DNA from: an uncultured virus (IMG/VR IMGVR_UViG_3300025838_000029) | Lineage: Duplodnaviria > Heunggongvirae > Uroviricota > Caudoviricetes | Virus record (IMG/VR): IMGVR_UViG_3300025838_000029 | Location: 62,001 to 89,399 of that record | Strand: one strand, 5' to 3' | Length of the DNA stretch: 27,399 bases | Shown here: positions 8,386 through 24,795 of the stretch, piece by piece | How positions within the stretch are numbered: the stretch's first letter is position 1 | Layout: each line of letters begins with the position of its first letter | The notes under the pieces: generated by a model | Databases searched by the model: none | Seen by the model: only the letters and a program-made list of their open reading frames with translations | What the model was told of the DNA's origin: nothing | Made by a program: the position numbers and the translations under genes

Positions 8386-9513
8386 ATGGTTGGGATGTTA
8401 AACGCAATTGCTGGCAGATATCATTATGATGAAGGCGGCTCTACTGGAGATGACGACCAGCAGAGAGGTCCACTCTCCACTTATGACCCGTCTGTTCTTG
8501 GCAATATGCAGAATGCAGTCCTAGGGGGAACACCTGAATCTGCCTTGCAGAAATATAAGGATGCCCAATCAGCACAGGAAGCAGCGGCCCAAGCAAAGAA
8601 GGATCGTATCCAACAGGCAATGGATACACTGAGTGCAAATCGCTCCAATCTCCCGATGATGGCTTTTGGCGCAGGGATGATGAAGCCAACCCACACTGGC
8701 ACGTTTGGCGAAACACTTAGTAATGCAATGAGCGATACAATCCCCGCCATTGATAAGCAGCGTCAATATGAGGCGCAGCTTCAGCAGATGGGGGTTTCAG
8801 CGGCTGACGTTGATCTGGCCCAGAAGACTAAAGCGGCCCAAGATTGGACAGACCGGATGAAGCTTGGGTTGACTACGGCAGAAACAAACCAGAGATTGCA
8901 GCAAAGTGATCAGCAACATCAGGATTCGCTTAATCTTCAGAGGCAGCAGCTTCAAGGACAAAAAGGATATTATGATTATTTGAAGCAAGAAGACCCTGAC
9001 GAAGTTTCCTCATGGGTGCCATTGTATGAAAAACCGGGCGTTCAAAAGATGGACCCTGTAAGTGGCTTGCCGTTATATCAAGGCATGAGCAAAACAGAGA
9101 AGCCCGTCGGTCAGCCTCGGATTGTTAGAAGTGATGATTTGGATAGCAGCAATACAAGTTCCCGTGCAGATCCGATTATTTCGCAGTATAATTCGGCTCA
9201 GAAGGCGCTTGATGCTGCTATTAGCAAAAGGTACGTTATATTAGGATCAAATCCTAAAGCCGATACGAAAATGTTAGATGAGCAAATCGCTCGTCAAAGA
9301 GAGCTTGTTGAACAATTGAGAGTTGCGGCTACGACAAGGTTGGGAGGCTCAACCACAACGCAGCCTGTATCGCCGGATCCCTTAGCGGCAGGATTAGGGG
9401 GAAACGGAAGTGTTCCTTCTAAGAAGCCAAACATTGATCCTGGCATATATTCTCCTTCTCAAGAAGCAGCTAGGTCTGGAGCATTTCCCGCCCCACAGCC
9501 AGGAATTGATTGA
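8386..9513 (+). CDS. Putative ejection protein (Q/A-rich helical)
   Basis: Likely start is ATG 8386 after GAGGGACGGA. YDEGG motif, FGAGMMKPTHTGTFGETLSNA motif, coiled-coil segments. The stop overlaps the start of the giant gene. Confidence 0.75.
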   Translation: MVGMLNAIAGRYHYDEGGSTGDDDQQRGPLSTYDPSVLGNMQNAVLGGTPESALQKYKDAQSAQEAAAQAKKDRIQQAMDTLSANRSNLPMMAFGAGMMKPTHTGTFGETLSNAMSDTIPAIDKQRQYEAQLQQMGVSAADVDLAQKTKAAQDWTDRMKLGLTTAETNQRLQQSDQQHQDSLNLQRQQLQGQKGYYDYLKQEDPDEVSSWVPLYEKPGVQKMDPVSGLPLYQGMSKTEKPVGQPRIVRSDDLDSSNTSSRADPIISQYNSAQKALDAAISKRYVILGSNPKADTKMLDEQIARQRELVEQLRVAATTRLGGSTTTQPVSPDPLAAGLGGNGSVPSKKPNIDPGIYSPSQEAARSGAFPAPQPGID

Positions 9514-12500
9514 TGCCTGAAGATCGCGCAGATGCTCCCCTACCGGAATCAGTGGACATTTCGGAGGCTACTCCTGCACCTGTTATAAACTATGTTAATT
9601 ACACTCCCGCCCCGACTCAGGCGCCAATAAAATCATCATTGCCTCCTTTGACACCGCGTCCAACAGAAAAGCCAGCACAAGGTCTTCCGTTAGACGTTGT
9701 TAAGCAGAAAGTGGCAAAGTTAAAAGATGCCGGTTATTCGCAGGATGAGATTGCTGAATCTCTTATGAAGAATCCTTTTTTCGGCCCTCGTATATCTGAG
9801 GCGGCTGATAAAGGATGGGAATATCCAGAAATTTTTTCGAGATTTGGCCTCGATGGATATGATCCAACGGAAGGTGGTCCGTTAAAGACTCCATGGCGAT
9901 ATGTCAAAGCAGGCGTTGAATCTGCTGGGGAAATGATTGGAAACACTCTCCAGGGCGGAGCTATCGCTTCAGACCGAAGATCTTTATATGCTCCATATTA
10001 TGAGGACTACACCTCGTTTAAGAGCAAGTCTCCTGAAGAGCAGCAGCAGATTCTTAGTAAGATCGCTAATAGTGATATGGACTTGGAGGCCAGACAGAAT
10101 CTTACAAAAGAGTTCCGCAGGCTTCAAGAGGGGGCAAATCCTAGACAATTTGACATGCTGGCAAATCAGCCAGTTGAACAATTGCCTGGATACAAAGTTG
10201 GACAATGGTTCAAAGACACCACACAGGGACTGCTTAATCCTGAAGAGGAAAAGCTAACTGGCGTTAGGATTGCTAAAGCTGCTGCCCCTATCGTTCCTGC
10301 TATGGCTGCAACAGCACTTGCCGGTCCTGCTGGCCCAATGGCTCTGTTTGGCGGGTCTTCTTATCAAGAGGGTTATGAGAAGGCAAAAAAGGTTGGCGCC
10401 TCAGAAGAAGCTGCCCGTGACGCTGCTATGAAAGAAGCCGGTATTGGTGCTGCCGCTGGTGTTCTGGATGTTGGAGCCATATTAGGCCCAATAGCAAAAT
10501 ACTCTCCTGAACTCCTTAATAGGGCGCAAGCAATCCTTTATAAAGGTATTCAAAGCGGTGTCATTGGAAGTTCAGTCGGAGAAGCTCAAAAGTGGCTGAA
10601 TGCTCAGATTGAACGCACAACTTATGATCCAAATGCACAATATAAATTTGATCCGACAGAAGCTGCGATTGGATTTGCAGGGATGGCAATTCCAGGTGCA
10701 GTTCATGGGGCATTCCATGAGCAAGCCCCAAAAGAAACCGCTCCGACAGGAACAGATATTCCTCATCCATCATTGATTGCCCATGCTTATTGGAGGATTG
10801 ATGAGCTTGAGTCTATCTACAATGGAACAGAGGGAAACCCTCCAAGGGATCTAACTCCTGCTGAAGCTGCCGAATACGCATTTCTTCAGAAGAACAAAAA
10901 TAAGCCCGAAGAGCTTTCTAAAGTGATTCGTGGGACTGAGCCTTCTGAGCAACCGGAGCCGACTCAAGCGCCAACAGTTACGCCAGCCCCAACTGTTTCT
11001 AAATCTAATAAGCCTCCGAAAGCGACAAAGGCTCCTGTGCAGGCTGAGATACAAGCTCAACCTGAAGCGCAAGTTCAACCGGAAACACAGGATAAGGTTC
11101 AAGAGGCTGCTAACGCCCTTGTCGAAGAGGCAAAGCAGAATCCTACGGTTACAACACCTGAAAAAGATAGTGATATCTCCGCTCAAATTAAGGAGATGAT
11201 CAACCCAAACAACCCGAGAGATTCTGTCTACATTGCTCCAGGGAATGAGCATGAAATCCCTGTCAGTGCTTTAGATCATCCAGGTGTTGAGCTTGCTGAA
11301 AATCCCGTTAGTAAGGCTTTGTTGCTAACGACCAATATGGACAAAGCCATAGATTTTCAGAAGAACAGAGATCTCACAGAAGAAGAGAAAGCCAATTTGC
11401 TGGGTCTTTCTCAACCCAAAACTGAGGCGTTAAAAGATCCTAATGCTGTCGTCGTTCAAGGGAAGAATGAGGATGGCGCTATTGTTCATCAGGAGCTTAC
11501 CTCACAGGATAACCTGCCTAACTCTGTAGAGAACACAGCGAATAGGACTCCTGAAACTGGTCAAGTTGAAGTCGCCAGCACAACAGGAGCGCAAGCCCAT
11601 AGAGTTGGTGGTGATGATCAAGCTGTTCCTGTGGCAAAAGGAAAGGTTCCGACTCCCGATCCTGAGATACAGATTGCTGAGATCCGTAAGCAGATTGAAT
11701 CATTTGAAGAACATCGGGATCAAGCTCTTGAAGTTGGGGATACTCCTACGGCTCAGAATTGGCATAACCGTATAAGGGAGGCTAATGAACAAATAGCCGA
11801 GCTTCAAAGAGGTCAACCGTTAGAAAAAGAGCCAGCAGTTCAAGAGAGTGAACCCGCTTCTCCGCAGGCTCCGTCAACCGATATTCCTTGGGAAAATCAT
11901 TATCAACGAGCAGTTGATGTCGTTGGGAGCGAGAGTTTCCCGCTTAAAAGCAAACCACTTGCAGATAAGCTTGGGGTTGATGAGGCTATGGCAACAAGGC
12001 TTTTACAAGCCATGGCGTCCAGGGGAGCTATTAGGCAAACAAAGAATGGTGGGTTTTCACGAAATCCAGATAGAGGCCCGTTAGACTTTCTTACATTCTT
12101 GGCAGCAAAGGGAGGTCTTCGGGATGATGAAGGCCATCTTCTTGCTCAAAGTATGGACGCTCAGAGGATGGTTCCGAATTACGGACCTTTAATCCGTAAG
12201 AATGGAATGGGGATTGATCAGGCAGGGGAAGCTTTGTGGCAGGCCGGATATTTTGGCCCGACTGATTCTACGCCAAGGCCAACAGAGACAGAAGTATTAA
12301 ACAAGCTAAGTGAAGCCCTGAATGGGAGACTTCCTCTTGAAGAGCGGTATTCTGAATATGACCGAGATCGGGTGCAAAAGATTCAGGACACCAAGACCGC
12401 TAAAGATCGGGAGAAGCTTGAAAAAACAGCTAGGGCTGACATTGAGAAGCTTAATGAAGAAAAGACATATGGATTAACCCCAGAAGAAAAAGCTAGAGCG

Positions 12501-15500
12501 ATTGAGCTTTTGGTTGAGCATCCAGAGGATTTCTCTCCAGAGGAGGCTGTTGTTCACGTTCTCGATACGTCAATGATTGAGGATCTTCATGGGGCTATTG
12601 ACGTAGCAAGGGATGCACATGATGACGAGTTTTCCGATATACCGTTTGAGTGGCCAGCAGAGGTTGAACCTCCTCAACGAGGCGAAGAGGAGGGTAAAGG
12701 GACAGAAGTCTCTATCCCCACTTCAGAGGAGGAATCTGGCACGGTTGGCAAAGAACCTGGAGAAGGTGAACGCCAAGATCTCCGTGACAAAGAAATAGGT
12801 GATGTCATTGGTGCAGGGGAACGGACAGCCCCACCAATGGACAGAGAGCGTCAGCAGGCGGAAATAAGGGCGCGACAGGCAGGTAAGAAAAGAAGCGGAA
12901 AAGAACAAGAAGAACCGGGCGGGATGTTTGCCACGGAAGAAAAGGGGTTATTTTCCGAACCGAAGAAAACCGCTGATTATGGAACTCAGAATAAGGTCAT
13001 TACAGCAGACGCGGCGGAGAAAGCTAGAGAGCTTCTTCGCAAGAAATCAAATCAGATTAATGCTGGTATTGACCCTGAAACCATGTTGGCTGGTGTTACG
13101 CTTGCTGCCTATCACATAGAGGCAGGAACAAGAAAGTTCGTAGATTTTGCAAGGGCTATGGTTTCTGATGTCGGCGCATGGATTAAGCCGTACCTGAAGT
13201 CATGGTATAATGCGATCCGCGATTATCCGGGGTTGGAGGAAGCTGCCAAGGACATGACGCCGCATGAAGAAATGAATGCGGCCATGGATCAATTGGAAAG
13301 GGAAGGCTATGTATCAAGCGAATCCAGAGGTCTGGAACAAACTGGCGAGGGACCAAAAACTGAAAACGCCATGGGCAAAGAGGCTCTTCCCACTGAAGAG
13401 AGAGGAGCTTCACAAGGCGTTAGAGAAAGAAACGGAGAAGCTGAAGCAAGAGGGAATAACAAGCCCTCAAGTGAGGAGCAGCTTCCTTCAGATGGCGCCT
13501 CTTCTGTGGGAGAGAGAGGCAATAGCGAAAGAGACGCAGGAGAACCCGGCTTTGGGGCAGTGCCTGCCGAACGTGGAGGACGCCCAGGAGGCTACGATGT
13601 TAGCCAGCATGGACCGGCCATTGAGCATATCGAACCAGAAGAAGTTAATAAAACTGCTGGAGACTCCAAGACAGTAGCTCAGAGGTTTGCAGAGCAGAAG
13701 ATTGCAAACTCTCGTCCAGTTGTCTGGAACGATATTAATAACATCAGAGAGACATTACCCGCTCTATTCCCTGATCAACAAGATGATGTTCATAAGTCTG
13801 AAAAACGTCTGAGTGTTGCTCATGGGATTATGATTACCAACGGAACTGGCACCGGCAAGACATGGAGTGCTGGTGGTGTAATCGCTAGATTTGTCCGTCA
13901 GGGAAAAGAAGACATTCTTGTTGTTGCCCCCTCTCAGGACATCCTCACTGATTGGAAAGCTGCCCTTAAACATCTTGGTGTCGATGCCTCCGTTTTAGAA
14001 GGGACGCAGAAGTCTGGTAAGGGCGTAACACTTACTACCTATGCTAATCTTGGGGAAAATCGCCATATAGCGGATCGGAACTGGCATTTAGTTGTCGCAG
14101 ACGAAAGCGATAATCTTATGTCAGATCAAAAAGGGAATACCACAAAAGCTCTAAATAGCTTCAGGGCGATCACGAACCATCCCGACGCATTGTATATTAG
14201 AGCGGATATGGCTTTGAGGGATCTTAATGATCGTGTTGCAGATCTCTCAGAGCGTGTTCATAAAAATTATAACAACAAAGAACTGACCTCTCAGTGGATA
14301 AACGCCCAGAGAGAGCTTGAGCAAAAACGCAAAGAGTTGGTTGATGTATACAAAGATCAACCGCGATCAAAGGCTATATTCCTTTCGGCCACTCCATTTT
14401 CATATGACAAAACAACTGACTATGGAAATGGCTATCTGTTCGATTATCAAAAAGAAGGTAATAGAAGTGGGTATAACGTAGCTGAAGGTCGTAACCTTTT
14501 TATGGTTCAGAACTTTGGCTATCGGATGAGAAATGGGAAACTCACGGCTCCAGAAGCAAATGTTAATAGTGAGGTTCTTGAAAGAGATTTTCATGAACGC
14601 CTGAAGAAAGAAGGGGCTTTGATCGGGAGACGGTTGGAGGTTGATTCTGACTATGATCGTAAGTTCATATTAGTTAATGACGCTATTGGGAATAACATTG
14701 ACCGGCTTCTTGAGTTTTTGCGTGAATCTGATGACGGGAAATTCCGTCCGATCTATTCATTCGTTAATGATAGATTTGATTATCTTTCAAGGCAGAGGTT
14801 GCTTGAGGCAATCAAGGCCAATCACGCAATCCCTATTATTCGGGAACACCTTGCTCTTGGCAGAAAGGTTGTTGTCTTCCATGACTTCAATGAAGGTGGT
14901 GGATTCCATCCTTTTGATACGAGTGAAATTCCAAATAACCCTGTCTTTGTTACCGTCAATGGAAAGTCACATGAGTTCAATTTAAAAGACCTCGCAAACG
15001 AATTTCACGACAGGAACCCTGACGCAATAAAAATGGACTTCTCATCTATGAAAAGTCCGATTGAAACGATGACCAAGGCTTTTCCAGAAGCTCTTGTCTA
15101 CAATGGAACGGTAAGTTCCAAGAACAGGGCCACCATCAAGCAACTCTTTAATCAAGATGGTTCTGGCAGAGATGTCATTGTTATTCAATCGGCTGCTGGT
15201 AGAGCGGGAATAAGCCTGCACGACACAACGGGAGTCCATCAAAGGGTTTTAATTAATCTTGGTATGCCCACTCGGCCAACAACCTCAATTCAACAAGAGG
15301 GGCGCATTTATCGTACAGGGCAAAAGTCCGATGCAATGTTCCGGTATATGAATACTGGCACAGCATGGGAGCGGGAAGCATTTGCCAGTAGGATTGCTGA
15401 ACGGGCAAGCTCAGTTGAAAACCTTGGAATGGGGAACCAAGCACGTCAATTGAAGCAATCATTCATTGATGCCTTCAATGACACATCTGAGTACCCTCCT

Positions 15501-18500
15501 TCTCCTGAAGAGGGAAAAGGTGGGAAATCATTAGACCGTCAGACATTCAGTGATATGTCTGATTTTGAAAGAGCTAAAACTTATTACTTTGCAGAGCAGA
15601 AGAAGACGGGTCGCAGAGATCAGCGTGAGGGTGTTGACTATTTTCCAACACCAGAACCGTTGGCACAGAAGATGGTTGAATGGGCAAATGTTAAGCCCGG
15701 AGAGAAAATCCTTGAACCATCTGCTGGTCATGGCGCGATATCTCGTTATTTCCCAGAATCTACAGAACGCACTATCGTTGAGCCGTCTAAGGATCTTGCA
15801 ACCAGAGCCAGCCTAATGACTCCTGGCGCTAGAGTGGTGAACGATAAGTTTGAGAATCTGCATATCTCAAATAAGTACGATGGGATTGTTATGAATCCAC
15901 CTTTTGGCATTGGTGGAAAAATGGCAATTGAACATCTGGCTAAAGCTGCTTCCCATGTTCGGGAAGGAGGGAGGATCGTTGCCCTTCTCCCAGAAGGACC
16001 GGCAACCGATAAACGTCTTGCTGCATTTAGAGATAGTGATGCGGCAAAAGACCTTCATCTAGTTGGAACGGTATCCTTGCCGACTCATATGTTTGATCGG
16101 GCAGGAACAAACGTTAAGTCTCATGTTCTTATATTTGAAAAGCATACCGTTCCAAAACAGGCAAATCAGTATGGCTCTGATGTCGGAGATAAGATCCGAT
16201 CTGTTGTACACCATGCAGATCTGTCTAACTCTCCAAGCATTAACGATACGTTCAATCGACTTGAGCATTTGTCGATGCCTGATCGTATTGAGCCGGTGAC
16301 TAAAGAGGTTGAGGCTCCAGAAGTTCCATCAAATGGAAAGGTTGTCGTTAGTGGGCTGGCCCTGAGTTCAATAACCAATAAAGACGGGTCTATCATGGTC
16401 AGCCCGACCAAGCGTCTTGGCGCCAATGATTATGCTCGGTTTATGCGGGTTGGTGAGAGATATGGGGGGGTCGAAAATGATTATTATAGTGGATTATCAT
16501 TTAAATCTCCCGATGAGCGCAGTGCGTTTTTTAATGCTTTAGAGCGTGGTGAAACAGGGAATGAGCCTTCCGCTGAAGCTCAAAGGCAAATTGATAATGG
16601 TGGATTAGGCGTTACCTTTGATCGTAAGCAAGGGTTGCGTGAAGATGGTGCTGTTTATGAGAAACTTCATACTCAGACCAGAAAAAAGCTTTTTTATGCA
16701 AAGCCTGATAACAGAGTATCCCCTGAGACTTATCAAAAGCTAAAACAGATTGCTGGAGAAAATGGCGGAGGATTCTGGGACCGCTATGAGAAAGCATTCA
16801 GGTTTAATGACGAAGATAGCCGTCAAGCATTTATGAATAAAGTTACAGGGTCACTCCCCCTGAAGAGTGGAGACTTGCGGGTTGGCAAGAAAATGGACGC
16901 ATTATATGTCCATAAGTCTGCCATCGATACGCTTCCAAAGGATGCTCAAAATCGTATTGAAAGAGCAAAGCCTCCGTTTGATTGGGATGTTGCCAAGATA
17001 AAAAGAGACAAAGATGGCGCTCTTGAGAATGTCTCTCTTATTGAGGCAAAAGATTTTGATGAAGCTGATGAGCCGAGTGTCGGAAGATCCTTTGTCATAG
17101 ATAGAGACGGAGAGACTCGTATCATCCCAGCTTCTGGGAAAATTTATCATGGTAAATGGCAAATGGTTAAGTCCGACTATCAGGGCTTTGATGTTGATGC
17201 CAGCAAGGAAAGAACACGGCTTCTTGACAGCGTAACGTCAACTGAGGACAAGAGACGGTACGGTCAAAAAGATTACATGGATAATGTTGTCGCGCCTAAG
17301 CTGTCTAACAATGCAAAATTAGCAGATCGGTTCTTAACTGATCGGGACAAAGTTCCTGAGACAGTAACAACTCTCGACTACAACCCAAAAGATGGGATTG
17401 TTCAAAAAATTAGCTCGGCTAACACGGTGCGTCGTCAAGCTGCACAAGTTTTCGGCAATGATAAGTTTTATCCTAGATCCGAAACGCCGTCTTTTAATCT
17501 TGATCTTGGTGGCGGAAAATTCCCTGAAGGAACAGAACGACTTGCTGAAAAGGGAATAACCAATCTCATCCATGATAAATATAATCAGAGTGAGCAGCAT
17601 AACAGGGATGTTGTTGAGAAGGTAAAGGCTGAGAAGGGAACCGGAATCGTTTCTGCCACTAATGTTCTAAATGTCATCAAGGAACCAATGGCAAGGCTTG
17701 ACCTTATTCGCCAAGCTGCAAAAGGTTTGAAGGATGATGGGGTCGCTTATTTCCAAATCCATGAAGGTGATAAGAGTGGAGAAGGGAAAGAGACAAGTGA
17801 TGGGTGGCAAGCCAATAAGCTGACATCAACCTATCTTCCTATGGTCAGGCAGTATTTTGGCAAGGTTAAGCAGGTTGGCAGGCCAGATGCTCCTAAAGGC
17901 AATCTAATTATTGCCGCAGAGCCTAAGAGAATACCGGGACAAACTATTTGGGAAGGCACTGAGCCTTGGGATACCAAAGGCAATACCGTGCCTATGTTCT
18001 CGGGGGACGTGCGTAATGAGCATTACTTCCCTGAAGATGGTGAGGGCCTGATTGCTCATAATGAATCTTTAAGCCCAGGAGATGCTGAGTTAGTTCATAA
18101 CGATGCACGGGCATATGTTTTGGATCGAGGAAACGAAACCGGCCATGAGCATGGGATTGCTGTTCATTCTGATGGGCGAGTTGAACATTTTACGGAAGGA
18201 AAAGAGGATACTCTTTCTATAAAGAAAGTTGCTCCAGAGCTATATCGTGAGATGGAGCAAGCTGGTAACAACATTGACGTTCATCATAATCACCCAGAGG
18301 GAACGAGCGCCCCACTATCTGAAAGTGATTTGCAGCTATCGACTCTTGATGGTGTCAATCGTGTAATTGCCCATGCTGGAGACGGTGTATTTTCCGTTGC
18401 AAAATGTTCGGACGCCTTAAACCAATTCGGCAATGCTGGAGATCGGCAAAAGCTTATCCGAAATTCATACAGAGATGCTCTTCGGGCCATACAAGAAAGG

Positions 18501-21278
18501 ATATTCACTGGTATCCGAGATGGAGAGATTTCTGAAGAGGGGATCCATAACATTGGTGATTATGAGCATATTATAAACATGGCCCTGGATCGGGTTGGGT
18601 TGATTGATTATGTTTCAAACCATCAGATTGAAGACACTCCTCTCAATCGGGAACTTGCTCAGAAGGCAATTCTTGCTGCATGGGATAGCGCAAATGAAAA
18701 TGGATTTAGAGTAAGGAGTAGCCAGGATGCTGTCAGGCTTGATGCTAAATTATTCCATGATGGAACCTTTGCCGAAGTTGCGAAAAATTTTGGTGAACCT
18801 TCAGGAACTCTCCAAGGAGGATCCAGAGGCGAAGGAAGAATTGGAGAAACTGCGAGAGACTATCCGCTGGAGAGAGAAAATAAATCTTCTTCCCAAGAAG
18901 GAGCAGCGGAATCGTTAGGTCTTAAATCTGGCGACCTAAGAACAGAAGATGAGAAACGTGGGGCTGTAACAATCTCTCATGTCATCGATAAGTGGAGCGC
19001 GGAAGGACCGGGGAAGGGTCCACTTCGGCGCCCTGTTCAAGTCCTTGAGGGAGCGGCTGATTATGTTAAGGAAACACTTCCTATAACGAGTCAAATTTGG
19101 AAATGGGCAAGTCGTCGCATTTTCCCTGGTTCAGCAGATGCTTTCGCTAAATCAGCAGCAAGAACAATCCGTCATATGTATGGGCAGTCCTATCTCTGGG
19201 AGATCCAGATGGGACATAAGCTCGATGAAATATCCAATCGCCTCGATGCTCTTCCTGTCGATGAATGGAACAAGATCGGGATTGCTTGGGCCAAAGGGGA
19301 CTATGAATCAATTCCGGAAGAATACCGCGAGGCGTTTAAACAAGCAGATGACTTTACAAAGAAAGCCACAGAGAGGCTTCAGTCTCTTGGGGTTCTGAAA
19401 GATGCAATGGGGCATTATGTAGGAAGAATTTGGAAGAAGCGTGGAGAGAATGCCCCGTCAACTGATGAGGAAGGAAAGAAGATATTCAATCAGTTGATGA
19501 GCAAGTTCCCCCTTCTTGGAAGGAAATCCTTCCTGAAGAAAAGATATTTTGATGAGTATGAGGATGCTATCGCGGCAGGAATGGAGCCTGTCTACAACCC
19601 TCTGAAGACACAGATGGTTAAGATTGCTGAGATGAACAGATATTATACAGGGACAACTCTTGTCCGTGCGGCGAAAGAAAGCGGTATAGCAAAGTTCTTT
19701 GCAAGAGGATCTCAGGTACCGGACGGTATGTTAGAGTTGGCTGGTCCTGAATTTCAACGCCCATTTATGAAGGTCATTGAGGGAGAAAAGACTACGTCTG
19801 TTCTTCCTGGCGCTTGGTATGCCCCAGAGGGATTTGCTCGGGTCTACAACAATCATGTTTCAAGAGGGTTCTCTGGAACACCAGAAGGTGAACCTGTGCA
19901 GATGCTTAGGAGCATTGGTGGGTTTATGAACCAAGCACAGTTGGGTTTGTCTATGTTCCACCCTGTCTTTACAACGTTTGACGCCATGAGTAGCACCATG
20001 GCTATTGCCGTTGATCAGGCTGTTCGTAAAGATTTTGGTCTTGCTGCTCAGACATTTGCAAAATCTATGAACCCATTCGGTGTTTATAAGGACGGGGATA
20101 ATTTCCTAAAGGCAGTCCTTGATCCTGACAAGGCAACTCCAGATCAGAAGTTACTGATTAATGCTCTTGGAGAGGGTGGCGGAAGAGTTTGGATGGAGAG
20201 AGTTCTGCGCCCGACTGATGAAGGGGCAATGGTTGCTAAAAGGATTTCGGATATACCCGCAACATTAGGAACGGCATGGAAGCTTGCGTCTCATAAGTAT
20301 GACGGAAGTGGGATGACTAATCAAATGAGGCGAGTGTTTAATGTCGCCGGTCGGGTTATGGAGACGATGTCGTCTCCGATTATGAACCATTTGGTTCCTC
20401 GTCAGAAGTTAGGTGTGTTCTCTCGTATGGCGGCTGATTGGCTTGCTGCAAATCCAAATGCAGGAAGTTTAGAGCGTATCACTAAAATGCAAGATATCTG
20501 GGAAAGCGTAGATAACCGTTTGGGTCAAATGGTTTATGACAACCTTTTCTGGGACAAGACTCTTAAAGAAGCAAGCTTCCTTGCTGTCCGGTCTGTTGGT
20601 TGGAACATGGGGTCGATCCGAGAGATTGGTGGAGGACTGACTGATTTCACAGGAGCCATAAAGGATAAGATTGCTGGTAGAGAGGCCGAGTGGACAAACA
20701 GAATGTCATATCTCATCGCTATGACAGCTAGTACGGCCATCACCGGGGCAATAATGAATCGTCTCTTTACGGGAGAAGGTCCAAAAGAATTAAAGGATTA
20801 TTTCTTCCCTCGTACTGGAGAAACGAGGTTGGTTAAACTTCCAGGTCGCAATCACCCTGTGATGGAAGTTCCTGAGAGGTTGTCGATCCCCTCTTACTTC
20901 AAAGACATTATGGCTTGGACAACCCAACCGGGTCAGACTGCGAAGAATAAGATTCATCCCTTATTTAGTGCAATGGCTCAAGCTTGGGATAACCATGATT
21001 ACTACGGTGATATCATCTGGAATAGAGATGACCCTGCTTATAAACAGGCATTGGATATGGCAAAGTTTGCTGGCTCAACATTGATTCCGTTCTCAATCAC
21101 CGGAACAATGAAAATGTGGAAAGAGCGTCCAGGTCCAGTTGCCACTATGGGTATGCTTGGGTTCCAGCCTGCACCTGGATATATAGCCGCCCCAGAAGCA
21201 AGACAAGCATGGGATGATTACATCCATGCTCAAGAGGTTAGAAAGAAAGCAGCGCGTGAGCTTAAAAATAGTAACTAG
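9513..21278 (+). CDS. Giant DarB-like polyvalent virion protein: SF2 (Strawberry-notch-like) helicase, N6-adenine DNA MTase, second MTase module, JAB/MPN domain, helical C-terminal region
   Basis: 11.8-kb ORF; AGGA SD before ATG 9513. Helicase motifs: GTGTGKT (13842), VADESD (D at 14100), LSATP, AGRAGISLHD, QQEGRIYRTGQ (15291). MTase motifs: DYFPTP, EPSAGHG (15714), NPPF (15894). Second MTase: NLDLGGGKF (17496), NVLNVI (17661). JAB: E...HNHP...SESD (18147-18329). Confidence 0.92.
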   Translation: MPEDRADAPLPESVDISEATPAPVINYVNYTPAPTQAPIKSSLPPLTPRPTEKPAQGLPLDVVKQKVAKLKDAGYSQDEIAESLMKNPFFGPRISEAADKGWEYPEIFSRFGLDGYDPTEGGPLKTPWRYVKAGVESAGEMIGNTLQGGAIASDRRSLYAPYYEDYTSFKSKSPEEQQQILSKIANSDMDLEARQNLTKEFRRLQEGANPRQFDMLANQPVEQLPGYKVGQWFKDTTQGLLNPEEEKLTGVRIAKAAAPIVPAMAATALAGPAGPMALFGGSSYQEGYEKAKKVGASEEAARDAAMKEAGIGAAAGVLDVGAILGPIAKYSPELLNRAQAILYKGIQSGVIGSSVGEAQKWLNAQIERTTYDPNAQYKFDPTEAAIGFAGMAIPGAVHGAFHEQAPKETAPTGTDIPHPSLIAHAYWRIDELESIYNGTEGNPPRDLTPAEAAEYAFLQKNKNKPEELSKVIRGTEPSEQPEPTQAPTVTPAPTVSKSNKPPKATKAPVQAEIQAQPEAQVQPETQDKVQEAANALVEEAKQNPTVTTPEKDSDISAQIKEMINPNNPRDSVYIAPGNEHEIPVSALDHPGVELAENPVSKALLLTTNMDKAIDFQKNRDLTEEEKANLLGLSQPKTEALKDPNAVVVQGKNEDGAIVHQELTSQDNLPNSVENTANRTPETGQVEVASTTGAQAHRVGGDDQAVPVAKGKVPTPDPEIQIAEIRKQIESFEEHRDQALEVGDTPTAQNWHNRIREANEQIAELQRGQPLEKEPAVQESEPASPQAPSTDIPWENHYQRAVDVVGSESFPLKSKPLADKLGVDEAMATRLLQAMASRGAIRQTKNGGFSRNPDRGPLDFLTFLAAKGGLRDDEGHLLAQSMDAQRMVPNYGPLIRKNGMGIDQAGEALWQAGYFGPTDSTPRPTETEVLNKLSEALNGRLPLEERYSEYDRDRVQKIQDTKTAKDREKLEKTARADIEKLNEEKTYGLTPEEKARAIELLVEHPEDFSPEEAVVHVLDTSMIEDLHGAIDVARDAHDDEFSDIPFEWPAEVEPPQRGEEEGKGTEVSIPTSEEESGTVGKEPGEGERQDLRDKEIGDVIGAGERTAPPMDRERQQAEIRARQAGKKRSGKEQEEPGGMFATEEKGLFSEPKKTADYGTQNKVITADAAEKARELLRKKSNQINAGIDPETMLAGVTLAAYHIEAGTRKFVDFARAMVSDVGAWIKPYLKSWYNAIRDYPGLEEAAKDMTPHEEMNAAMDQLEREGYVSSESRGLEQTGEGPKTENAMGKEALPTEERGASQGVRERNGEAEARGNNKPSSEEQLPSDGASSVGERGNSERDAGEPGFGAVPAERGGRPGGYDVSQHGPAIEHIEPEEVNKTAGDSKTVAQRFAEQKIANSRPVVWNDINNIRETLPALFPDQQDDVHKSEKRLSVAHGIMITNGTGTGKTWSAGGVIARFVRQGKEDILVVAPSQDILTDWKAALKHLGVDASVLEGTQKSGKGVTLTTYANLGENRHIADRNWHLVVADESDNLMSDQKGNTTKALNSFRAITNHPDALYIRADMALRDLNDRVADLSERVHKNYNNKELTSQWINAQRELEQKRKELVDVYKDQPRSKAIFLSATPFSYDKTTDYGNGYLFDYQKEGNRSGYNVAEGRNLFMVQNFGYRMRNGKLTAPEANVNSEVLERDFHERLKKEGALIGRRLEVDSDYDRKFILVNDAIGNNIDRLLEFLRESDDGKFRPIYSFVNDRFDYLSRQRLLEAIKANHAIPIIREHLALGRKVVVFHDFNEGGGFHPFDTSEIPNNPVFVTVNGKSHEFNLKDLANEFHDRNPDAIKMDFSSMKSPIETMTKAFPEALVYNGTVSSKNRATIKQLFNQDGSGRDVIVIQSAAGRAGISLHDTTGVHQRVLINLGMPTRPTTSIQQEGRIYRTGQKSDAMFRYMNTGTAWEREAFASRIAERASSVENLGMGNQARQLKQSFIDAFNDTSEYPPSPEEGKGGKSLDRQTFSDMSDFERAKTYYFAEQKKTGRRDQREGVDYFPTPEPLAQKMVEWANVKPGEKILEPSAGHGAISRYFPESTERTIVEPSKDLATRASLMTPGARVVNDKFENLHISNKYDGIVMNPPFGIGGKMAIEHLAKAASHVREGGRIVALLPEGPATDKRLAAFRDSDAAKDLHLVGTVSLPTHMFDRAGTNVKSHVLIFEKHTVPKQANQYGSDVGDKIRSVVHHADLSNSPSINDTFNRLEHLSMPDRIEPVTKEVEAPEVPSNGKVVVSGLALSSITNKDGSIMVSPTKRLGANDYARFMRVGERYGGVENDYYSGLSFKSPDERSAFFNALERGETGNEPSAEAQRQIDNGGLGVTFDRKQGLREDGAVYEKLHTQTRKKLFYAKPDNRVSPETYQKLKQIAGENGGGFWDRYEKAFRFNDEDSRQAFMNKVTGSLPLKSGDLRVGKKMDALYVHKSAIDTLPKDAQNRIERAKPPFDWDVAKIKRDKDGALENVSLIEAKDFDEADEPSVGRSFVIDRDGETRIIPASGKIYHGKWQMVKSDYQGFDVDASKERTRLLDSVTSTEDKRRYGQKDYMDNVVAPKLSNNAKLADRFLTDRDKVPETVTTLDYNPKDGIVQKISSANTVRRQAAQVFGNDKFYPRSETPSFNLDLGGGKFPEGTERLAEKGITNLIHDKYNQSEQHNRDVVEKVKAEKGTGIVSATNVLNVIKEPMARLDLIRQAAKGLKDDGVAYFQIHEGDKSGEGKETSDGWQANKLTSTYLPMVRQYFGKVKQVGRPDAPKGNLIIAAEPKRIPGQTIWEGTEPWDTKGNTVPMFSGDVRNEHYFPEDGEGLIAHNESLSPGDAELVHNDARAYVLDRGNETGHEHGIAVHSDGRVEHFTEGKEDTLSIKKVAPELYREMEQAGNNIDVHHNHPEGTSAPLSESDLQLSTLDGVNRVIAHAGDGVFSVAKCSDALNQFGNAGDRQKLIRNSYRDALRAIQERIFTGIRDGEISEEGIHNIGDYEHIINMALDRVGLIDYVSNHQIEDTPLNRELAQKAILAAWDSANENGFRVRSSQDAVRLDAKLFHDGTFAEVAKNFGEPSGTLQGGSRGEGRIGETARDYPLERENKSSSQEGAAESLGLKSGDLRTEDEKRGAVTISHVIDKWSAEGPGKGPLRRPVQVLEGAADYVKETLPITSQIWKWASRRIFPGSADAFAKSAARTIRHMYGQSYLWEIQMGHKLDEISNRLDALPVDEWNKIGIAWAKGDYESIPEEYREAFKQADDFTKKATERLQSLGVLKDAMGHYVGRIWKKRGENAPSTDEEGKKIFNQLMSKFPLLGRKSFLKKRYFDEYEDAIAAGMEPVYNPLKTQMVKIAEMNRYYTGTTLVRAAKESGIAKFFARGSQVPDGMLELAGPEFQRPFMKVIEGEKTTSVLPGAWYAPEGFARVYNNHVSRGFSGTPEGEPVQMLRSIGGFMNQAQLGLSMFHPVFTTFDAMSSTMAIAVDQAVRKDFGLAAQTFAKSMNPFGVYKDGDNFLKAVLDPDKATPDQKLLINALGEGGGRVWMERVLRPTDEGAMVAKRISDIPATLGTAWKLASHKYDGSGMTNQMRRVFNVAGRVMETMSSPIMNHLVPRQKLGVFSRMAADWLAANPNAGSLERITKMQDIWESVDNRLGQMVYDNLFWDKTLKEASFLAVRSVGWNMGSIREIGGGLTDFTGAIKDKIAGREAEWTNRMSYLIAMTASTAITGAIMNRLFTGEGPKELKDYFFPRTGETRLVKLPGRNHPVMEVPERLSIPSYFKDIMAWTTQPGQTAKNKIHPLFSAMAQAWDNHDYYGDIIWNRDDPAYKQALDMAKFAGSTLIPFSITGTMKMWKERPGPVATMGMLGFQPAPGYIAAPEARQAWDDYIHAQEVRKKAARELKNSN
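12619..12798 (+). CDS. Candidate overprinted small basic protein (+1 frame inside the giant gene)
   Basis: AAGGGA precedes tandem ATGs at 12619 and 12622. Amphipathic-looking LSGQQRLNLLNEAKRR...LSPLQRRNLARLAKNLEKVNAK. Occupies an acidic disordered linker. Could be a shadow ORF. Confidence 0.3.
   Translation: MMTSFPIYRLSGQQRLNLLNEAKRRVKGQKSLSPLQRRNLARLAKNLEKVNAKISVTKK
13309..13677 (+). CDS. Candidate overprinted helical protein, 122 aa (+1 frame inside the giant gene, just upstream of the helicase)
   Basis: Purine-rich GGAAAGGGAAGG before ATG 13309. Natural protein-like composition (MYQANPEVWNKLARDQKLKTPWAKRLFPL...APLLWEREAIAKE). The host frame over the same span is G/E/R-rich and low in complexity. 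Confidence 0.6.
   Translation: MYQANPEVWNKLARDQKLKTPWAKRLFPLKREELHKALEKETEKLKQEGITSPQVRSSFLQMAPLLWEREAIAKETQENPALGQCLPNVEDAQEATMLASMDRPLSISNQKKLIKLLETPRQ
18727..18918 (+). CDS. Candidate overprinted 63-aa helical-hairpin protein (+1 frame, directly after the JAB domain)
   Basis: TAAGGAG at 18712-18718, 8 nt before the ATG. Sequence EPLPKLRKILVNLQELSKEDPEAKEELEKLRETIRWREK. The host frame becomes a G/E/R/S linker here. Confidence 0.55.
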   Translation: MLSGLMLNYSMMEPLPKLRKILVNLQELSKEDPEAKEELEKLRETIRWREKINLLPKKEQRNR

Positions 21279-21641: not shown

Positions 21642-22076
21642 ATGAATGGACAGGATCTAACAAAATCCTACGAGGGATGTACTCTCGTAGCGATTAAGGA
21701 TTCCCGTGGGGTGGAGATTGGTTGGGGGCATAATTCTCCTGATATCCAGCTTGGGATGACATGGACTCAGTCACAGGCTGATCAGGCTTTTGATTATGAT
21801 TATGGCAAGGCTATGGATAATGCCAGAAGGATCCTTGGTATTGCAGTTTGGTCAATGCTTAATGAACCTCGCAAAGCCGTTGTTGCCGACATGATCTATG
21901 AGCTTGGTCCGAGTGGGTTTTCTGCTTTTAAGCAATTGATAGCTGCAATTGATGCCGGGAATTATTCAGCGGCTGAATCTGCAATGCTCGATAGCTTATG
22001 GGCGAAACAAGTTCCGAACAGAGCTAACCAGAATGCCAAAATTATGCTAACCGGAGAATGGCCAAATGGACAATAA
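21642..22076 (+). CDS. Endolysin, T4-lysozyme-like (GH24)
   Basis: YEG...KD..G.EIGWGH aligns to T4L E11/D20/IGIGH. LNEPRKAVVADMIYELG..G...F and MLDSLWAKQVPNRA......TGEW align to the T4L C-terminus. Confidence 0.92.
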   Translation: MNGQDLTKSYEGCTLVAIKDSRGVEIGWGHNSPDIQLGMTWTQSQADQAFDYDYGKAMDNARRILGIAVWSMLNEPRKAVVADMIYELGPSGFSAFKQLIAAIDAGNYSAAESAMLDSLWAKQVPNRANQNAKIMLTGEWPNGQ

Positions 22077-22293: not shown

Positions 22294-22500
22294 GGAATCT
22301 TATGTTTTAACACCTTCCCCGCCCTAAAGGACGGGGATTTCCGCAACCGGAGGCGCATGCTCGCGCCCGAGAATATTACAAGCAGCATTAACGTCACGGT
22401 CATGGATGGTTCCGCAATGCTCACAAGTCCATTCTCTTACTCCAAGGTCTGCGATACCTCTCGGCCTCCCATTGGGCAACGCGCCACAACAGGAGCAGAC
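22287..22500 (-). ncRNA. Predicted TnpB omegaRNA/reRNA (5' boundary approximate); guide from flank AACATAAGATTCCTTATGGA
   Basis: Inferred from established TnpB biology: the scaffold overlaps the tnpB 3' end and the right end, and the guide is the adjacent flank. Only the right-end hairpin is directly seen. Confidence 0.5.
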
Positions 22501-23567
22501 TTGGGAACTGTATGCTTCGTTGACAATGCTGAACTTCCGGCCAAGCGCAATCGCTTTATAAGCAAGCTGGTTTCTAAACATCGTCCATCCGGCATCGCTG
22601 ACGGATTTCGCCATTTTGGTTTTCATCAATCGGGATGGGCTGACGTTACCAACCACGATATGTCCGTATTGACGGACAATTCTTGTGCTTTCGACATGCA
22701 GGAAATGCCTGCGCTGTCTGGCAATCTTGGCCTGAATATCTCTGGCGCGACGTTTTTGTTTGCGCCGTTGATACAGAGCCAACTTTTCCTGAGAGGATCG
22801 GAAAAACTTTGGAGACTCGATCTTGGTTCCGTCGCTCATAGTGGCGAAAGTTTTCAAGCCAAGATCAATCCCAACGGCGAGGCCATCCTGTTTTTCCCCA
22901 TCTGGCAACTCGATCTGGATGTTGACAAACCAATGTCCTTGGCTATCGCAGGACAAGTTCCACGATTTAGGATTTCCGTTCTCTGGAATGGGGCGAGACA
23001 ACCAAAGCCGGTAGTCACGACCAAGAAAACGCAGAGTATCCCCGTCCAATTTAGCAGGACGTTTGAAATTGCTGAATGGAATCCAGTCGAGGTTGCGCTT
23101 GGCCGACCGGAAGCGCGGCGTCTTTGGAAAACATGCGCTCCGAGAATCGGCAAACTTGGCACAAACCGCATCAACCGTGTCGGAGTGAATACCAAGTTCT
23201 TTGGTCACACCTCGGCACAAATTGGCAAGATCGAACGCAGAAGGACGCTTGATAGTCATCCCGGCGCGGTATCTGGATGCGGCAACGCGGTCAGTTTCGC
23301 AACAATAATTCCAGACGAAATTAACCGCTCTAGCCTGCGTCCTAAGCGCACGACGAACGGCTTTATTTCCATCCTTGATTCGGTATTGGTGCGTCAATAT
23401 CATCGAAAAGGGCGTCTTTCTGGTAATGACAGAAGCTCGTCTAGGGACTGTGCGACGTTGCAAGCGTCCACAGTCCCGATCAATTTACCCCACTTTTGTC
23501 TCAACATCAACAAGGGAGCGGCTTTCCTCCCCGGCCTAAACGCCGGGGTTTCCAGCCGAAACATCGG
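22307..23567 (-). mobile_element. IS200/IS605-family element, tnpB only (IS1341-like, non-autonomous)
   Basis: Left-end hairpin CCCCGGC-CTAAAC-GCCGGGG (23529-23548) with guide GAAA. Right-end hairpin TCCCCGCCCT-AA-AGGACGGGGA (22316-22337) with guide AAAT and terminal TTAA. Target TCAT on the minus strand at 23568-23571. No tnpA and no target duplication. Confidence 0.88.
22324..23403 (-). CDS. tnpB: RNA-guided endonuclease TnpB (~359 aa)
   Basis: N-terminal MILTHQYRIK...VNFVWN. RuvC-I VGIDLGLKTFA. KSVSDAGW..FRNQLAYKA. Zn finger CSCC...CEHC. RuvC-III HDRDVNAACNI. Confidence 0.95.
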   Translation of the reverse strand: MILTHQYRIKDGNKAVRRALRTQARAVNFVWNYCCETDRVAASRYRAGMTIKRPSAFDLANLCRGVTKELGIHSDTVDAVCAKFADSRSACFPKTPRFRSAKRNLDWIPFSNFKRPAKLDGDTLRFLGRDYRLWLSRPIPENGNPKSWNLSCDSQGHWFVNIQIELPDGEKQDGLAVGIDLGLKTFATMSDGTKIESPKFFRSSQEKLALYQRRKQKRRARDIQAKIARQRRHFLHVESTRIVRQYGHIVVGNVSPSRLMKTKMAKSVSDAGWTMFRNQLAYKAIALGRKFSIVNEAYSSQVCSCCGALPNGRPRGIADLGVREWTCEHCGTIHDRDVNAACNILGREHAPPVAEIPVL

Positions 23568-23915
23568 ATGAGAAAATTATTTATCGTCCCTCTGCTTCTC
23601 TTAGCTGGGTGCAACAGTGACGGAACCCTGAAGCCGGGTGTCCTGACATTCGTCAACAACGTCGTCACTGCTTCTTGTCAGATTGATCAGGCAATTCCTG
23701 GTCTTGTGTCACAGGGGGCGCTTATTACAGCTTTGGTTGCTCCTGAATATGCCCCAGAGGTTGCTTTGGCAACGAAGGTTGATCAGTTGGCGCATCCTGC
23801 TGTTGTCGCTGCGTGTAATGCGGCAGCGGCGGCTCAAGCGAATGCTGCTGCAAATCATCCTGTGGCTGTAGCTGTAACCCCGATCTCAACAACGGTAACG
23901 GTTCCTGCGCGATGA
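23568..23915 (+). CDS. Lipoprotein in the lysis module (possible spanin-like or outer-membrane lysis factor)
   Basis: MRKLFIVPLLLLAGC is a signal peptide II with an LAGC lipobox. Ala/Val-rich body with two further Cys. ATGA coupling to the lipase gene. Confidence 0.8.
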   Translation: MRKLFIVPLLLLAGCNSDGTLKPGVLTFVNNVVTASCQIDQAIPGLVSQGALITALVAPEYAPEVALATKVDQLAHPAVVAACNAAAAAQANAAANHPVAVAVTPISTTVTVPAR

Positions 23916-24637
23916 CGACACCAGATTTTCAGAGGCTTCACCAGCTTGCTCAGTTGGCAAGCCTCGTCTATCAGACAGATGCAAATGTCCTGGCTAAGGG
24001 CGCCGAGAACTTAGGGTTTGAGTTTGTCGGTCTGGTTGGGAATAAAGAATGCCAAGCAATGGTTCTCACTGAGTTTGGTGGGCAACTTATTGTAATCCGG
24101 GGAACTCAAGTGGAAGAGAATTTCTCTCCATGGGAGTTATGGGATGACGCCAACCCAAATCATACTGAGGTTGGTGGTGGTGCAAAGGTTCGGTCAGGGG
24201 CGTTTGATCCTCTGAAGGATCTATGGAAAGACATCTGGGATCTTGTAGATCCGAGTGAACCGCTTACCATCACAGGACACTCTCTTGGTGGTCAGAGGGC
24301 GGCGATATCAGCCTTCCTCGTTCCTAGGGGGGTTAAGTTATCGGTTGTTGCATTTGCCCCTCCGAAGGGAGGAAATAAGGAGTTCTGGACAGCGGCTTAT
24401 TCTGGTCGGACTCTTCCTGTTATCGTTGGTAGAAGCAATGACTTTGCCCTTAGTTGGGCCTCTCTTGATACCGTGACCTGTCAACCATGCCCGGTTCTTC
24501 ACCTTAAAGAAGACGGTGGGTGGGAGATGTTATCCTCCTGGCCGTTCCTCACTGCTTCGATTCCGGATCACGATGTTGATAAGTATGTTTCGGATCTTGA
24601 GTCCCTCCTCCCTAAGAAGGAAGCTCCCAAAGAATGA
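23912..24637 (+). CDS. Class 3 lipase (alpha/beta hydrolase)
   Basis: Motifs IVIRGT, V.SG.F, nucleophile elbow ITGHSLGG and FAPPKGGN. Candidate catalytic Asp (RSND) and His (DHDVDKY). Confidence 0.9.
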   Translation: MTTPDFQRLHQLAQLASLVYQTDANVLAKGAENLGFEFVGLVGNKECQAMVLTEFGGQLIVIRGTQVEENFSPWELWDDANPNHTEVGGGAKVRSGAFDPLKDLWKDIWDLVDPSEPLTITGHSLGGQRAAISAFLVPRGVKLSVVAFAPPKGGNKEFWTAAYSGRTLPVIVGRSNDFALSWASLDTVTCQPCPVLHLKEDGGWEMLSSWPFLTASIPDHDVDKYVSDLESLLPKKEAPKE

Positions 24638-24795
24638 GTGATTGGCAGAAGCAATGGGAAGCCGCTGTCGTCGCAAGTTGGGTTGCGGCTCAGATGGGAA
24701 TTGCTCTCTGGACTAAGACTTTGATTGGCTCTCTTGAACAGGAGAAGCCAAAATTAAAACTCGTAACGATGAATGGGAGACGGATTGATGACTGA
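24634..24795 (+). CDS. Small hypothetical protein, 53 aa (below the ORF-track cutoff)
   Basis: ATGA overlap with the lipase stop. MSDWQKQWEAAVVASWVAAQMGIALWTKTLIGSLEQEKPKLKLVTMNGRRIDD. Fills the gap exactly and overlaps the next start. Confidence 0.65.
   Translation: MSDWQKQWEAAVVASWVAAQMGIALWTKTLIGSLEQEKPKLKLVTMNGRRIDD

Follow-up and report, generated by a model that had tools for sequence, protein, structure and literature searches.

A two-gene cassette appears to be built into a giant virion-delivered polyvalent protein at nucleotides (nt) 18063-18918 of a 27,399-nt stretch of DNA from an uncultured Caudoviricetes virus (hereafter the window), a reading to which we give a probability of about 0.6. 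The window takes up the rightmost 27.4 kb of a viral metagenome entry of 89,399 nt (IMG/VR record IMGVR_UViG_3300025838_000029) rated complete by CheckV, and the giant open reading frame (ORF) lies on its + strand at 9510..21278, encoding 3922 amino acids (aa) in what is here called frame 0. The first gene of the cassette, in frame 0, would encode a divergent RadC-like JAB/MPN+ metal-hydrolase domain. The second would encode a helical-hairpin protein of about 50-60 residues that has its own Shine-Dalgarno (SD) sequence and ATG and is an obligate companion of the JAB family. Since the JAB domain is internal to the polyprotein, its frame would read through the second gene, which thereby comes to be embedded in the +1 frame while the read-through product forms a disordered Gly/Arg/Glu/Ala linker.

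A Small-Protein Family Linked to JAB Domains

Six relatives (L003 and L008-L012) were picked only by helicase or JAB similarity; their JAB identity to the window is 26-34% and their GC content 58-66%. All six carry an ORF at a similar distance from the HxH motif of the JAB domain, and the six products have in common the motif L(I/V)DPPxPF(A/G)xxxEWxDFLxxL...P..P.V...A...L. In L011, where the JAB frame comes to a stop, the small ORF simply follows as a gene of its own (58 aa, ATG start, GAGGTGAT upstream, 38-nt overlap), while in L003, L008-L010 and L012 the JAB frame continues and the small ORF is embedded in +1. An early view of the window's ORF as a chance product of a purine-rich linker was dropped once these same-place ORFs appeared in six relatives.

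When a profile of the six products was run against 5.8 billion sequences, it retrieved 29 separately called small proteins of 48-109 aa, with E-values down to 7e-19. Many of them start M-x-LIDPPSPFA, and the family consensus, about 50 aa in length, reads LIDPPSPFAxxxEWxxFLxxL.... Pfam, PHROGs, NCBIfam and PADLOC returned chance-level rows only for this family, and a look-up of the small protein in the ESM Atlas gave no usable match.

Linkage to the JAB domain was followed with two DNA patterns. A degenerate pattern for the small-gene motif led to 29 viral stretches, and 80 bacterial-genome stretches were fetched as well. Eight of the 29 viral matches reach a profile E-value of 1e-13 or better, and JAB lies directly upstream in 8/8 (E 1e-29 to 1e-52); in the remaining 21 JAB is missing and the scores do not rise above motif level, and these are chance hits. 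Among the bacterial matches 2/80 are true (Kaistia soli DSM 19436 and a Hyphomicrobium metagenome-assembled genome), with JAB upstream in both. The second pattern, made from JAB only, gave 18 further viral loci (L162-L179), of which 16 have a small-family match at E<=1e-7, placed +332 to +520 nt from HxH. The match in L170 is weaker (1e-4), and L168 ends at a contig edge before the small gene could be assessed. In this way the small gene is present in 23/23 assessable viral loci selected for the JAB family, and we have little doubt that the family and the cassette are real. The initial annotation of this DNA had proposed that a JAB effector and a small immunity gene move as one cassette. The small gene does follow JAB in relatives, and the linkage in 23/23 loci bears out the cassette, while the role of inhibitor is inferred.

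In one metagenomic cluster representative (P0046, 262 aa) a single frame encodes both JAB and the small module (E 4.4e-11), joined by a linker of about 25 residues modelled with low confidence; the join may be natural, or it may stem from a frameshift in the assembly. In its AlphaFold2 (AF2) model the predicted local distance difference test (pLDDT) exceeds 92 over the JAB part and is 90-95 over the hairpin helices (residues 212-224 and 230-254), whereas the linker (177-199) is disordered and the Pro-rich arm has a pLDDT of 42-77. A fold search with this model returned two separate, independent matches, and docking between JAB and the small module is not readable from it.

The Small Gene as the Older Reading

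The layout of the pair follows the position of the JAB domain. Where JAB ends the protein the small gene is a separate or overlapping gene, and where JAB is internal the small gene is embedded in +1, which is the frame of the embedded copies in 17/17 loci. Because some copies of the family stand alone as ordinary genes, comparison is enough to distinguish the two frames, and no experiment is needed. A profile was built from four separate genes only (L011, L019, L041 and L094), in which there is no frame-0 overlap. It matches the +1 products of 8/8 embedded loci tested (E 2e-17 to 5e-6), whereas the best frame-0 peptide of the same nucleotides reaches E 0.79. The +1 products are also more alike than the frame-0 peptides in 26/28 pairs, with a mean local score of 66.0 vs 39.9.

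Frame 0 is the genuinely coding long frame. Past JAB it has no stop for 247-918 codons, a stretch over which each of the other two frames has 4-36. The host gene runs at least 247 codons after the embedded gene in 15/17 loci and ends about 50 codons after it in L162 and L166. Among the JAB-bearing representatives, frame-0 tail alignments extend into the nested stretch in 30/157 matched stretches. This apparent frame-0 conservation is best read as a shadow of the small gene: DR(S/P)A..(V/I)R..G.(M/L)(A/G) of frame 0 overlies (L)IDPP.PFA...EW of +1. It had been supposed that the inhibitor was overprinted on an existing linker of the polyprotein, and the direction is the reverse. Since the +1 products match the separate-gene profile and the frame-0 peptides do not, the small gene is the older, constrained reading, and the Gly/Arg/Ala/Glu-rich linker was gained by the polyprotein reading across it. 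The restriction to +1 may follow from base composition. A small gene rich in G+C at third codon positions (GC3) would leave the frame one base upstream with S-N-N codons (S, G or C; N, any base), which are never stops, and such codons would therefore yield a linker of G/A/V/D/E and R/P/L/Q/H residues.

The JAB/MPN+ Domain

The RadC-like JAB/MPN+ domain with its C-terminal helical subdomain occupies 18063..18726 on the + strand (modelled aa 2852-3072; core about 2858-3063). GHEHG at 18141..18155 (+; aa 2878-2882) holds the catalytic Glu of the JAMM motif, at 18147, and HHNHPEGTSAPLSESD at 18282..18329 (+) is predicted from its motif, HxH-x8-S-x2-D, to be the Zn-binding/catalytic loop. All JAMM residues are present (E2880, H2926/H2928, S2937 and D2940). 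Across 32 aligned family members (the window and 31 short proteins) H, H and D never vary, and E and S are conserved in at least 90%. The HxH-S spacing is x8 in the window against x6 in the family and x7 in the canonical motif. In the window the loop is longer by 2 residues than in all 12 relatives inspected, and the window's small ORF alone lacks LIDPPxPF, so loop length and partner arm may co-vary (n=1).

An exhaustive HMMER search with the JAB segment found 156 cluster representatives at E<=1e-3, 20 of them at E<=1e-10, with identities of 37% or less; they are mostly proteins of 1200-6500 aa, and some are short. The segment itself has no Pfam match even at E<=10, and tblastn against phages and plasmids gave none. 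The Pfam RadC model (PF04002) is matched weakly by 7/32 family members (best E 0.0019), and the window JAB scores 13.8 bits with NF000642 against a cut-off of 180. Against the PDB, the JAB-family profile matches RadC (2qlc) at E 0.001. The AF2 model of the domain has a pLDDT of 94.4 and a predicted template-modelling score (pTM) of 0.90. When it was compared with the PDB by VIA-align, JAB/MPN proteins took ranks 1-7 and 9-10 of the top 10, led by JAMM1 (Z 8.3, root-mean-square deviation 3.7, 114 aligned residues) and including RadC (Z 7.6), Cap3 (Z 7.3) and Sst2 (Z 7.3). Foldseek returned the same families with weak E-values (0.02). Motif, profile and fold thus agree with the earlier identification as JAB/MPN, and the domain is, on sequence and model, a divergent RadC-like JAB/MPN+ domain with an intact catalytic motif and an extra C-terminal helical subdomain. 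It is RadC-like, yet not a RadC member by the curated models PF04002 and NF000642.

The Embedded Gene of the Window

At the end of the JAB domain a Shine-Dalgarno-like TAAGGAG (18712-18718, +) is followed by an 8-nt spacer (tagccagg) and an ATG at 18727, and its TAA doubles as the in-frame stop that opens the +1 ORF. The embedded +1-frame gene (18727..18918, +) encodes 63 aa and is a putative divergent member of the LIDPPSPF small-protein family. The frame-0 reading over it (18726..18920, +; DAVRLDAKLFHDGTFAEV...GGSRGEGRIGE...SSSQEGAAESLG) is a Gly/Glu/Ala/Ser/Arg-rich linker. All positions given in the initial annotation hold (GHEHG with its E at 18147, HNHPEGTSAPLSESD at 18285-18329, TAAGGAG, the ATG at 18727, the stop at 18918, and the peptide LKSGDLR that follows). 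At the level of sequence the window has the embedded architecture, with a complete small ORF and its own start signals inside a longer ORF.

Judged within the window alone, the nested ORF does not exceed chance expectation. On the same strand and in the alternative frames, the giant gene has 11 ORFs of at least 63 aa, and 5 of these start with ATG; synonymous-codon shuffles have 8.8 +/- 2.0 ATG-started ones this long. The remaining nested ORFs had been offered as support, and their number does not exceed that of the shuffles. At least one such ORF behind AGGAG or GGAGG occurs in 36% of 1000 shuffles. AGGAG itself is present in 17 copies in the 11.7-kb gene and is followed by ATG 4-10 nt later in 2 of them. 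The 63-aa product alone found no homologue by word-indexed search or tblastn, and a promoter/terminator scan of 18300-19100 gave one weak promoter-like site (18547-18574), with as many in shuffles.

Comparison with the family gives a weak but specific match. With a profile of 56 homologous small proteins that contains no window sequence, the nested ORF ranks 1st of 499 six-frame segments of the window (13.8 bits, E 0.0012; next segment 2.7 bits) and 1st of 2035 segments in the whole 89-kb genome (13.9 bits, E 0.0046; next 8.0 bits). None of 2000 shuffles of the product reaches its score (maximum 8.5 bits), and the reversed sequence scores 1.1 bits. The separate-gene-only profile scores 12.5 bits against it (P 7.5e-6), and hhalign of the ORF with the family gives P 1.9e-4 and a probability of 47.6%. 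The position agrees as well, the window ATG lying +445 nt from HxH where the profile match in relatives lies at +332 to +520 nt. Residues ~12-55 of the product fit the FAP...W..FL..L...DP.V...helix part of the family, and the alignment is gap-free from the FAP position, where MEPLPKLRKILVNLQELSKEDPEAKEEL stands against F(A/S)PxxxWxDFLxxLxxLPQEDPDVK. The near-consensus SD with optimal spacing is found at the homologous start, and L010, L011 and L008 have comparable SD sites ahead of their starts. In the motif [LF][IV]DPPxPF, as aligned in 28 members, D and the first P are invariant and the second P and F are conserved in at least 90%. The proposal that the nested ORF is a real small gene therefore stands in part: the ORF behaves as a divergent member of a conserved family, and the hallmark LIDPPxPF has been lost. 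From sequence comparison we consider that the window's copy is likely a true, expressed member and probably functional, with a copy in decay as the chief alternative.

Genomic Context of the Pair

Among JAB proteins that end at JAB, 10/11 have an N-terminal MuF (PF04233) domain (L011, L168, L170, L171, L173-L176, L178 and L179). The small gene is seen in 9 of these 10 MuF-JAB relatives, L168 being cut by the contig end. L011 lies between a portal gene and a DUF2213 head-protease gene; the DUF2213 protein beside its small gene (L011:3454-4908) has a weak N-terminal stretch resembling 2'-5' RNA ligase/Acb1 (E 2e-4 and 4e-4). In five separate-gene loci the two genes share a 4-nt ATGA stop/start overlap, which is typical of translational coupling. 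In the eleventh locus of this set (L177, 3-2525) a single ORF joins a portal protein (PF06381, 7e-93), Acb1 (PF23474, 7e-37) and JAB, and the small gene follows; this portal-Acb1-JAB fusion hints at a counter-defence role of JAB.

The analogy with MuF proteins drawn in the initial annotation is thus supported, in that related JAB domains and small genes occupy the C-terminus of MuF head proteins, the place of toxin and immunity gene. The window protein itself has no MuF domain and does not fall among the MuF-type polymorphic toxins. Its pair may resemble the MuF toxin/immunity layout in working, yet it is not a member.

What, then, is the small protein to the JAB domain? Because of its position, the strict pairing and the coupling, it is most simply taken as the cognate partner of JAB, and the two proteins probably bind each other. 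In the mechanism we propose, the small protein would be made by internal initiation on the polyprotein mRNA and would bind JAB, so that JAB stays inactive or protected in the cell that makes it, up to the time when the polyprotein has been packaged and ejected into the next host. Inhibition until ejection would put the two in the relation of effector and immunity protein known from MuF polymorphic toxins. Such an inhibitory or immunity role is advanced tentatively, at somewhat less than even odds, and is favoured over that of an activator or chaperone.

Alternative Explanations

Several observations weigh against this reading. The window's copy lacks LIDPPxPF and has LMLNYSMM at that place, and a score of only 12-14 bits could be that of a decaying copy. 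Stop-free runs of at least 67 codons hold 28% of the +1-frame codons, so that an open run of this length is expected at that share of positions. No close relative of the window phage was found by tblastn, or by blastn of 3 kb of the window, against 50,697 phage records. Among the relatives, L009, L035, L165 and L172 have no ATG call in a crude scan and their start and SD are unclear. The embedded loci L032, L035, L036 and L039 were found by the motif-encoding DNA pattern, so their first eight residues are not independent evidence. The lost motif, the residual score and the frequency of open runs would all suit a relic, open but untranslated or nonfunctional, in a phage where the frame-0 linker alone matters, and the JAB active-site loop is atypical too (x8 vs x6). 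Decay sits poorly with TAAGGAG, 8 nt and ATG exactly at the homologous start, one of only two AGGAG-ATG pairs in 11.7 kb, and with an ORF that is unbroken between its start and the point where family members usually end. Without any gap, the product also retains the hydrophobic register W/F/L..L and the EDP-x-K turn, and every JAB catalytic residue is intact; we consider a relic unlikely. Very improbable is a chance ORF, with no second gene in the window and the +1 similarity a mere shadow of frame-0 JAB-tail homology. ORF size and SD do lie within chance for the giant gene, some frame-0 alignments of relatives (the 30/157 noted above) reach this stretch, and the window's frame-0 FHDGTFAEV resembles the frame-0 RPDEGMARL, in a register 3 codons off the +1 alignment. 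Against this, the profile built from separate genes only still matches the window ORF, the relatives' frame-0 tails are themselves the weaker, low-complexity reading, and no shuffle attains the score. Programmed +1 frameshifting, which would give a truncated ...JAB-small fusion in place of a free small protein, seems hardly credible. P0046 shows that a covalent JAB-small product is viable and the embedded copies are all in +1, yet the window's ATG is preceded by a +1 stop 4 codons away, L011 and L012 likewise have one a short way upstream, and this leaves next to no room to shift; SD and ATG are present, and the rule of always +1 would have a simpler account in GC3 and S-N-N codons.

The remaining alternative accepts the same cassette and differs over what the small protein does, taking it as an activating or structural subunit of JAB, or as a chaperone for its folding, packaging or ejection. 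Strict 1:1 linkage and ATGA coupling suit any stoichiometric partner. An in-frame JAB-small fusion of the P0046 type, a pattern common for subunits rather than immunity proteins, fits a cofactor or regulatory subunit at least equally well and so also counts against an inhibitor. Acb1 in L177 and the DarB-like methylase/helicase of the window are counter-defence enzymes that need no immunity. Partner-dependent MPN+ enzymes are familiar from Rpn11-Rpn8, CSN5-CSN6 and BRCC36-Abraxas. The small gene, on the other hand, sits where MuF proteins with variable C-terminal toxin domains have their immunity genes, and a hairpin of about 50 aa with a Pro-rich extended N-terminus is unlike the MPN- partners Rpn8, CSN6 and Abraxas. 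If the partner did not have to come free, one would hardly expect it to remain a separate translation unit even within a polyprotein. On balance the subunit or chaperone role is rather unlikely.

A wider version of the inhibitor proposal can be put forward, doubtful as it is: that polyvalent proteins hide conserved, independently translated +1 partner genes in their linkers, and that here an effector-immunity cassette was swallowed whole on loss of a stop codon and works by clamp and release. The polyprotein would then read over its own inhibitor's gene, with the disordered Gly/Arg/Glu linker as new protein. In the producing cell the JAB active site would be held by the Pro-rich LIDPPSPF arm as by a clamp; at packaging the small protein would stay behind, so that the enzyme is armed only after ejection into the next host. 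The window's longer JAB loop and rewritten N-terminal arm could be a co-evolved specificity switch. If this holds, the low-complexity linkers of other polyvalent proteins are a place to seek hidden immunity or regulator genes.

The Giant Protein and Its Surroundings

Family profiles place an SNF2/ResIII-type helicase at aa 1421-1995 of the giant ORF (+), an N6-adenine methyltransferase-like domain follows at aa ~2040-2175 (+), and a region matching a DarB-like antirestriction PHROG is also present. With helicase, methyltransferase and DarB-like region in one ORF, the 3922-aa product qualifies as a polyvalent protein as Iyer et al. (2017; PMC5512222) use the term. It adds to these the JAB and a conserved C-terminal domain, and it stands among virion, lysozyme and other phage genes.

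This C-terminal domain (18942..21278, +, frame 0; aa 3145-3922, about 780 aa) lies 3' of the nested ORF and is without a Pfam match. Homologues lie at the C-terminus, always downstream of JAB, in 19/151 JAB-bearing representatives (best E 3e-138), and in L163 and L169 a homologue follows in the JAB frame directly after the embedded gene. JAB, embedded gene and C-terminal domain may form a recurrent super-module.

The peptide LKSGDLR occurs at 16860..16880 (+; aa 2451-2457), where L003 and P0006 enter JAB directly, and again at 18921..18941 (+; aa 3138-3144), 2 nt after the nested stop. These are the only two copies in the six-frame translation of the 89-kb genome, both in the giant protein, and they bracket an extra module of about 400 aa together with the JAB cassette (aa 2451-3144). 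Any repeated 7-mer occurs in 53/2000 shuffles of the giant protein. The copies differ in 6/7 codons and their flanks agree, SL(P/G)LKSGDLR; because of the different codons, selection acts on the peptide, a candidate processing site, docking motif or junction. LKSGDLR had been called a delimiter, and it is a candidate for that and, on sequence, a significant two-copy peptide repeat. The 151 other JAB-bearing proteins all lack it, and this, with just two copies in the genome, both in the giant protein, led to its rejection as a general protease site. Several other JAB-bearing polyvalent proteins (among P0099, P0120, P0138, P0065, P0106 and P0130) have exact repeats of their own, 7-14 aa long and far apart, such as a 12-mer at 1156 and 2101 in P0099; these may be domain duplications or junction motifs like LKSGDLR.

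The module of about 400 aa that follows the first copy (16881-18062; aa 2458-2851) is missing at the homologous place in L003 and P0006, where a conserved '...RQAF(L/M)...' segment runs directly into JAB. It has a weak Methyltransf_23 match (E 0.016) and a match to phrog_16075, of unknown function (aa 2454-2569), and is without a PDB sequence match.

Beyond the giant ORF the window contains virion-type genes and genes of lysozyme, lipase-like, HNH and TnpB-like type. Downstream, in order, lie a phage lysozyme gene (21642-22076, 1.7e-12), a class-3 lipase-like gene (23912-24637, 7.7e-8), an HNH endonuclease PHROG (24773-25279, 5e-19), and a gene (26474-27283) with a weak match to a C92 amidase / enoyl-CoA-hydratase-like PHROG. 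On the - strand, 22324-23463 holds a TnpB/IS605 OrfB-like gene (OrfB_IS605 7e-17, Cas12f1-like TNB 1e-23, phrog_506 transposase 2e-76). Nearly coextensive with it and antisense runs a + strand ORF of 404 aa (22357-23571) without a family match.

Implications

The 17 loci and the window, all in one frame, make up a well-replicated case of a functional-looking gene embedded in a longer phage gene. They point to a route by which polyvalent proteins may be assembled, namely read-through across a downstream partner gene, and this would account for a class of low-complexity linkers as frame shadows. The small-protein family is uncatalogued in Pfam, NCBIfam, PHROGs and PADLOC, and is the obligate companion of a widespread, likewise uncatalogued RadC-like JAB family found in capsid-delivered proteins of MuF, portal-Acb1 and DarB-like giant type. 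Its embedded copies are never reported by standard gene callers. With a partner in hand, the long-unclear function of RadC-type JAB domains becomes testable as that of an enzyme-partner pair.

Comparison With Known Systems

JAB domains in polyvalent proteins and RadC-type domains on MuF proteins are already known from the published accounts of both classes (Iyer et al., 2017; Jamet et al., 2017). A supplement to the MuF study lists RadC (PF04002), as a "putative nuclease", among MuF toxin domains, and JAB is not mentioned in its main-text passages (Jamet et al., 2017; PMC5576092). The family described here is like the MuF polymorphic toxins in the 10 loci where JAB is a C-terminal extension of MuF, with the small gene next in 9. 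It differs in that the window protein is without a MuF domain and the JAB family falls below the Pfam RadC thresholds. In the same passages the companion small-gene family is not named and a gene embedded in its effector's continuing ORF is not described, the word "overlap" appearing once, in the clustering method (Jamet et al., 2017).

The polyvalent proteins of Iyer et al. (2017; PMC5512222) are like the window protein in being giant, multi-domain and virion-delivered, with helicase, methylase and RadC-clade JAB, and that JAB is predicted there to act on nucleic acids and not as a deubiquitinase. The main text of that article contains neither "overlapping" nor "immunity protein", and presents no second gene within a polyvalent ORF. 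Cap3/Bil-type deconjugases are like the window JAB in fold and motif (Cap3, 9ild, Z 7.3; a bacterial deubiquitinase of ubiquitin-like proteins (Ubl), 8tyy, Z 7.0), and the L177 relative fuses JAB to the anti-CBASS phosphodiesterase Acb1 (CBASS, cyclic oligonucleotide-based antiphage signalling system). The sequence affinity of the window JAB, in contrast, is to RadC rather than Cap3, and the 20 other window ORFs scanned include no CD-NTase, E1/E2 or Ubl gene beside JAB of the kind found in a Cap3-type CBASS operon.

The closest precedent for the gene layout is lambda Rz/Rz1, in which a larger gene fully encloses a small partner gene that is read in +1 from its own start and is missed by gene callers (Kongari et al., 2018; PMC6139136). 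Two-component spanins occur embedded, overlapped or separated, and in the passages of that survey no spanin family mixes the embedded layout with the others (Kongari et al., 2018). The JAB-small family, by contrast, spans all layouts, and in 15/17 JAB loci the host gene runs far past the embedded gene (at least 247 codons, as above). Rz and Rz1 themselves are unrelated proteins with another function, lysis. In the literature searched, no report was found of this small-protein family, of its obligate link to JAB, or of a gene embedded in a polyvalent protein. Taken together, the arrangement appears to unite two known types, an effector with a cognate small gene and a gene within a gene, with a new small-protein family.

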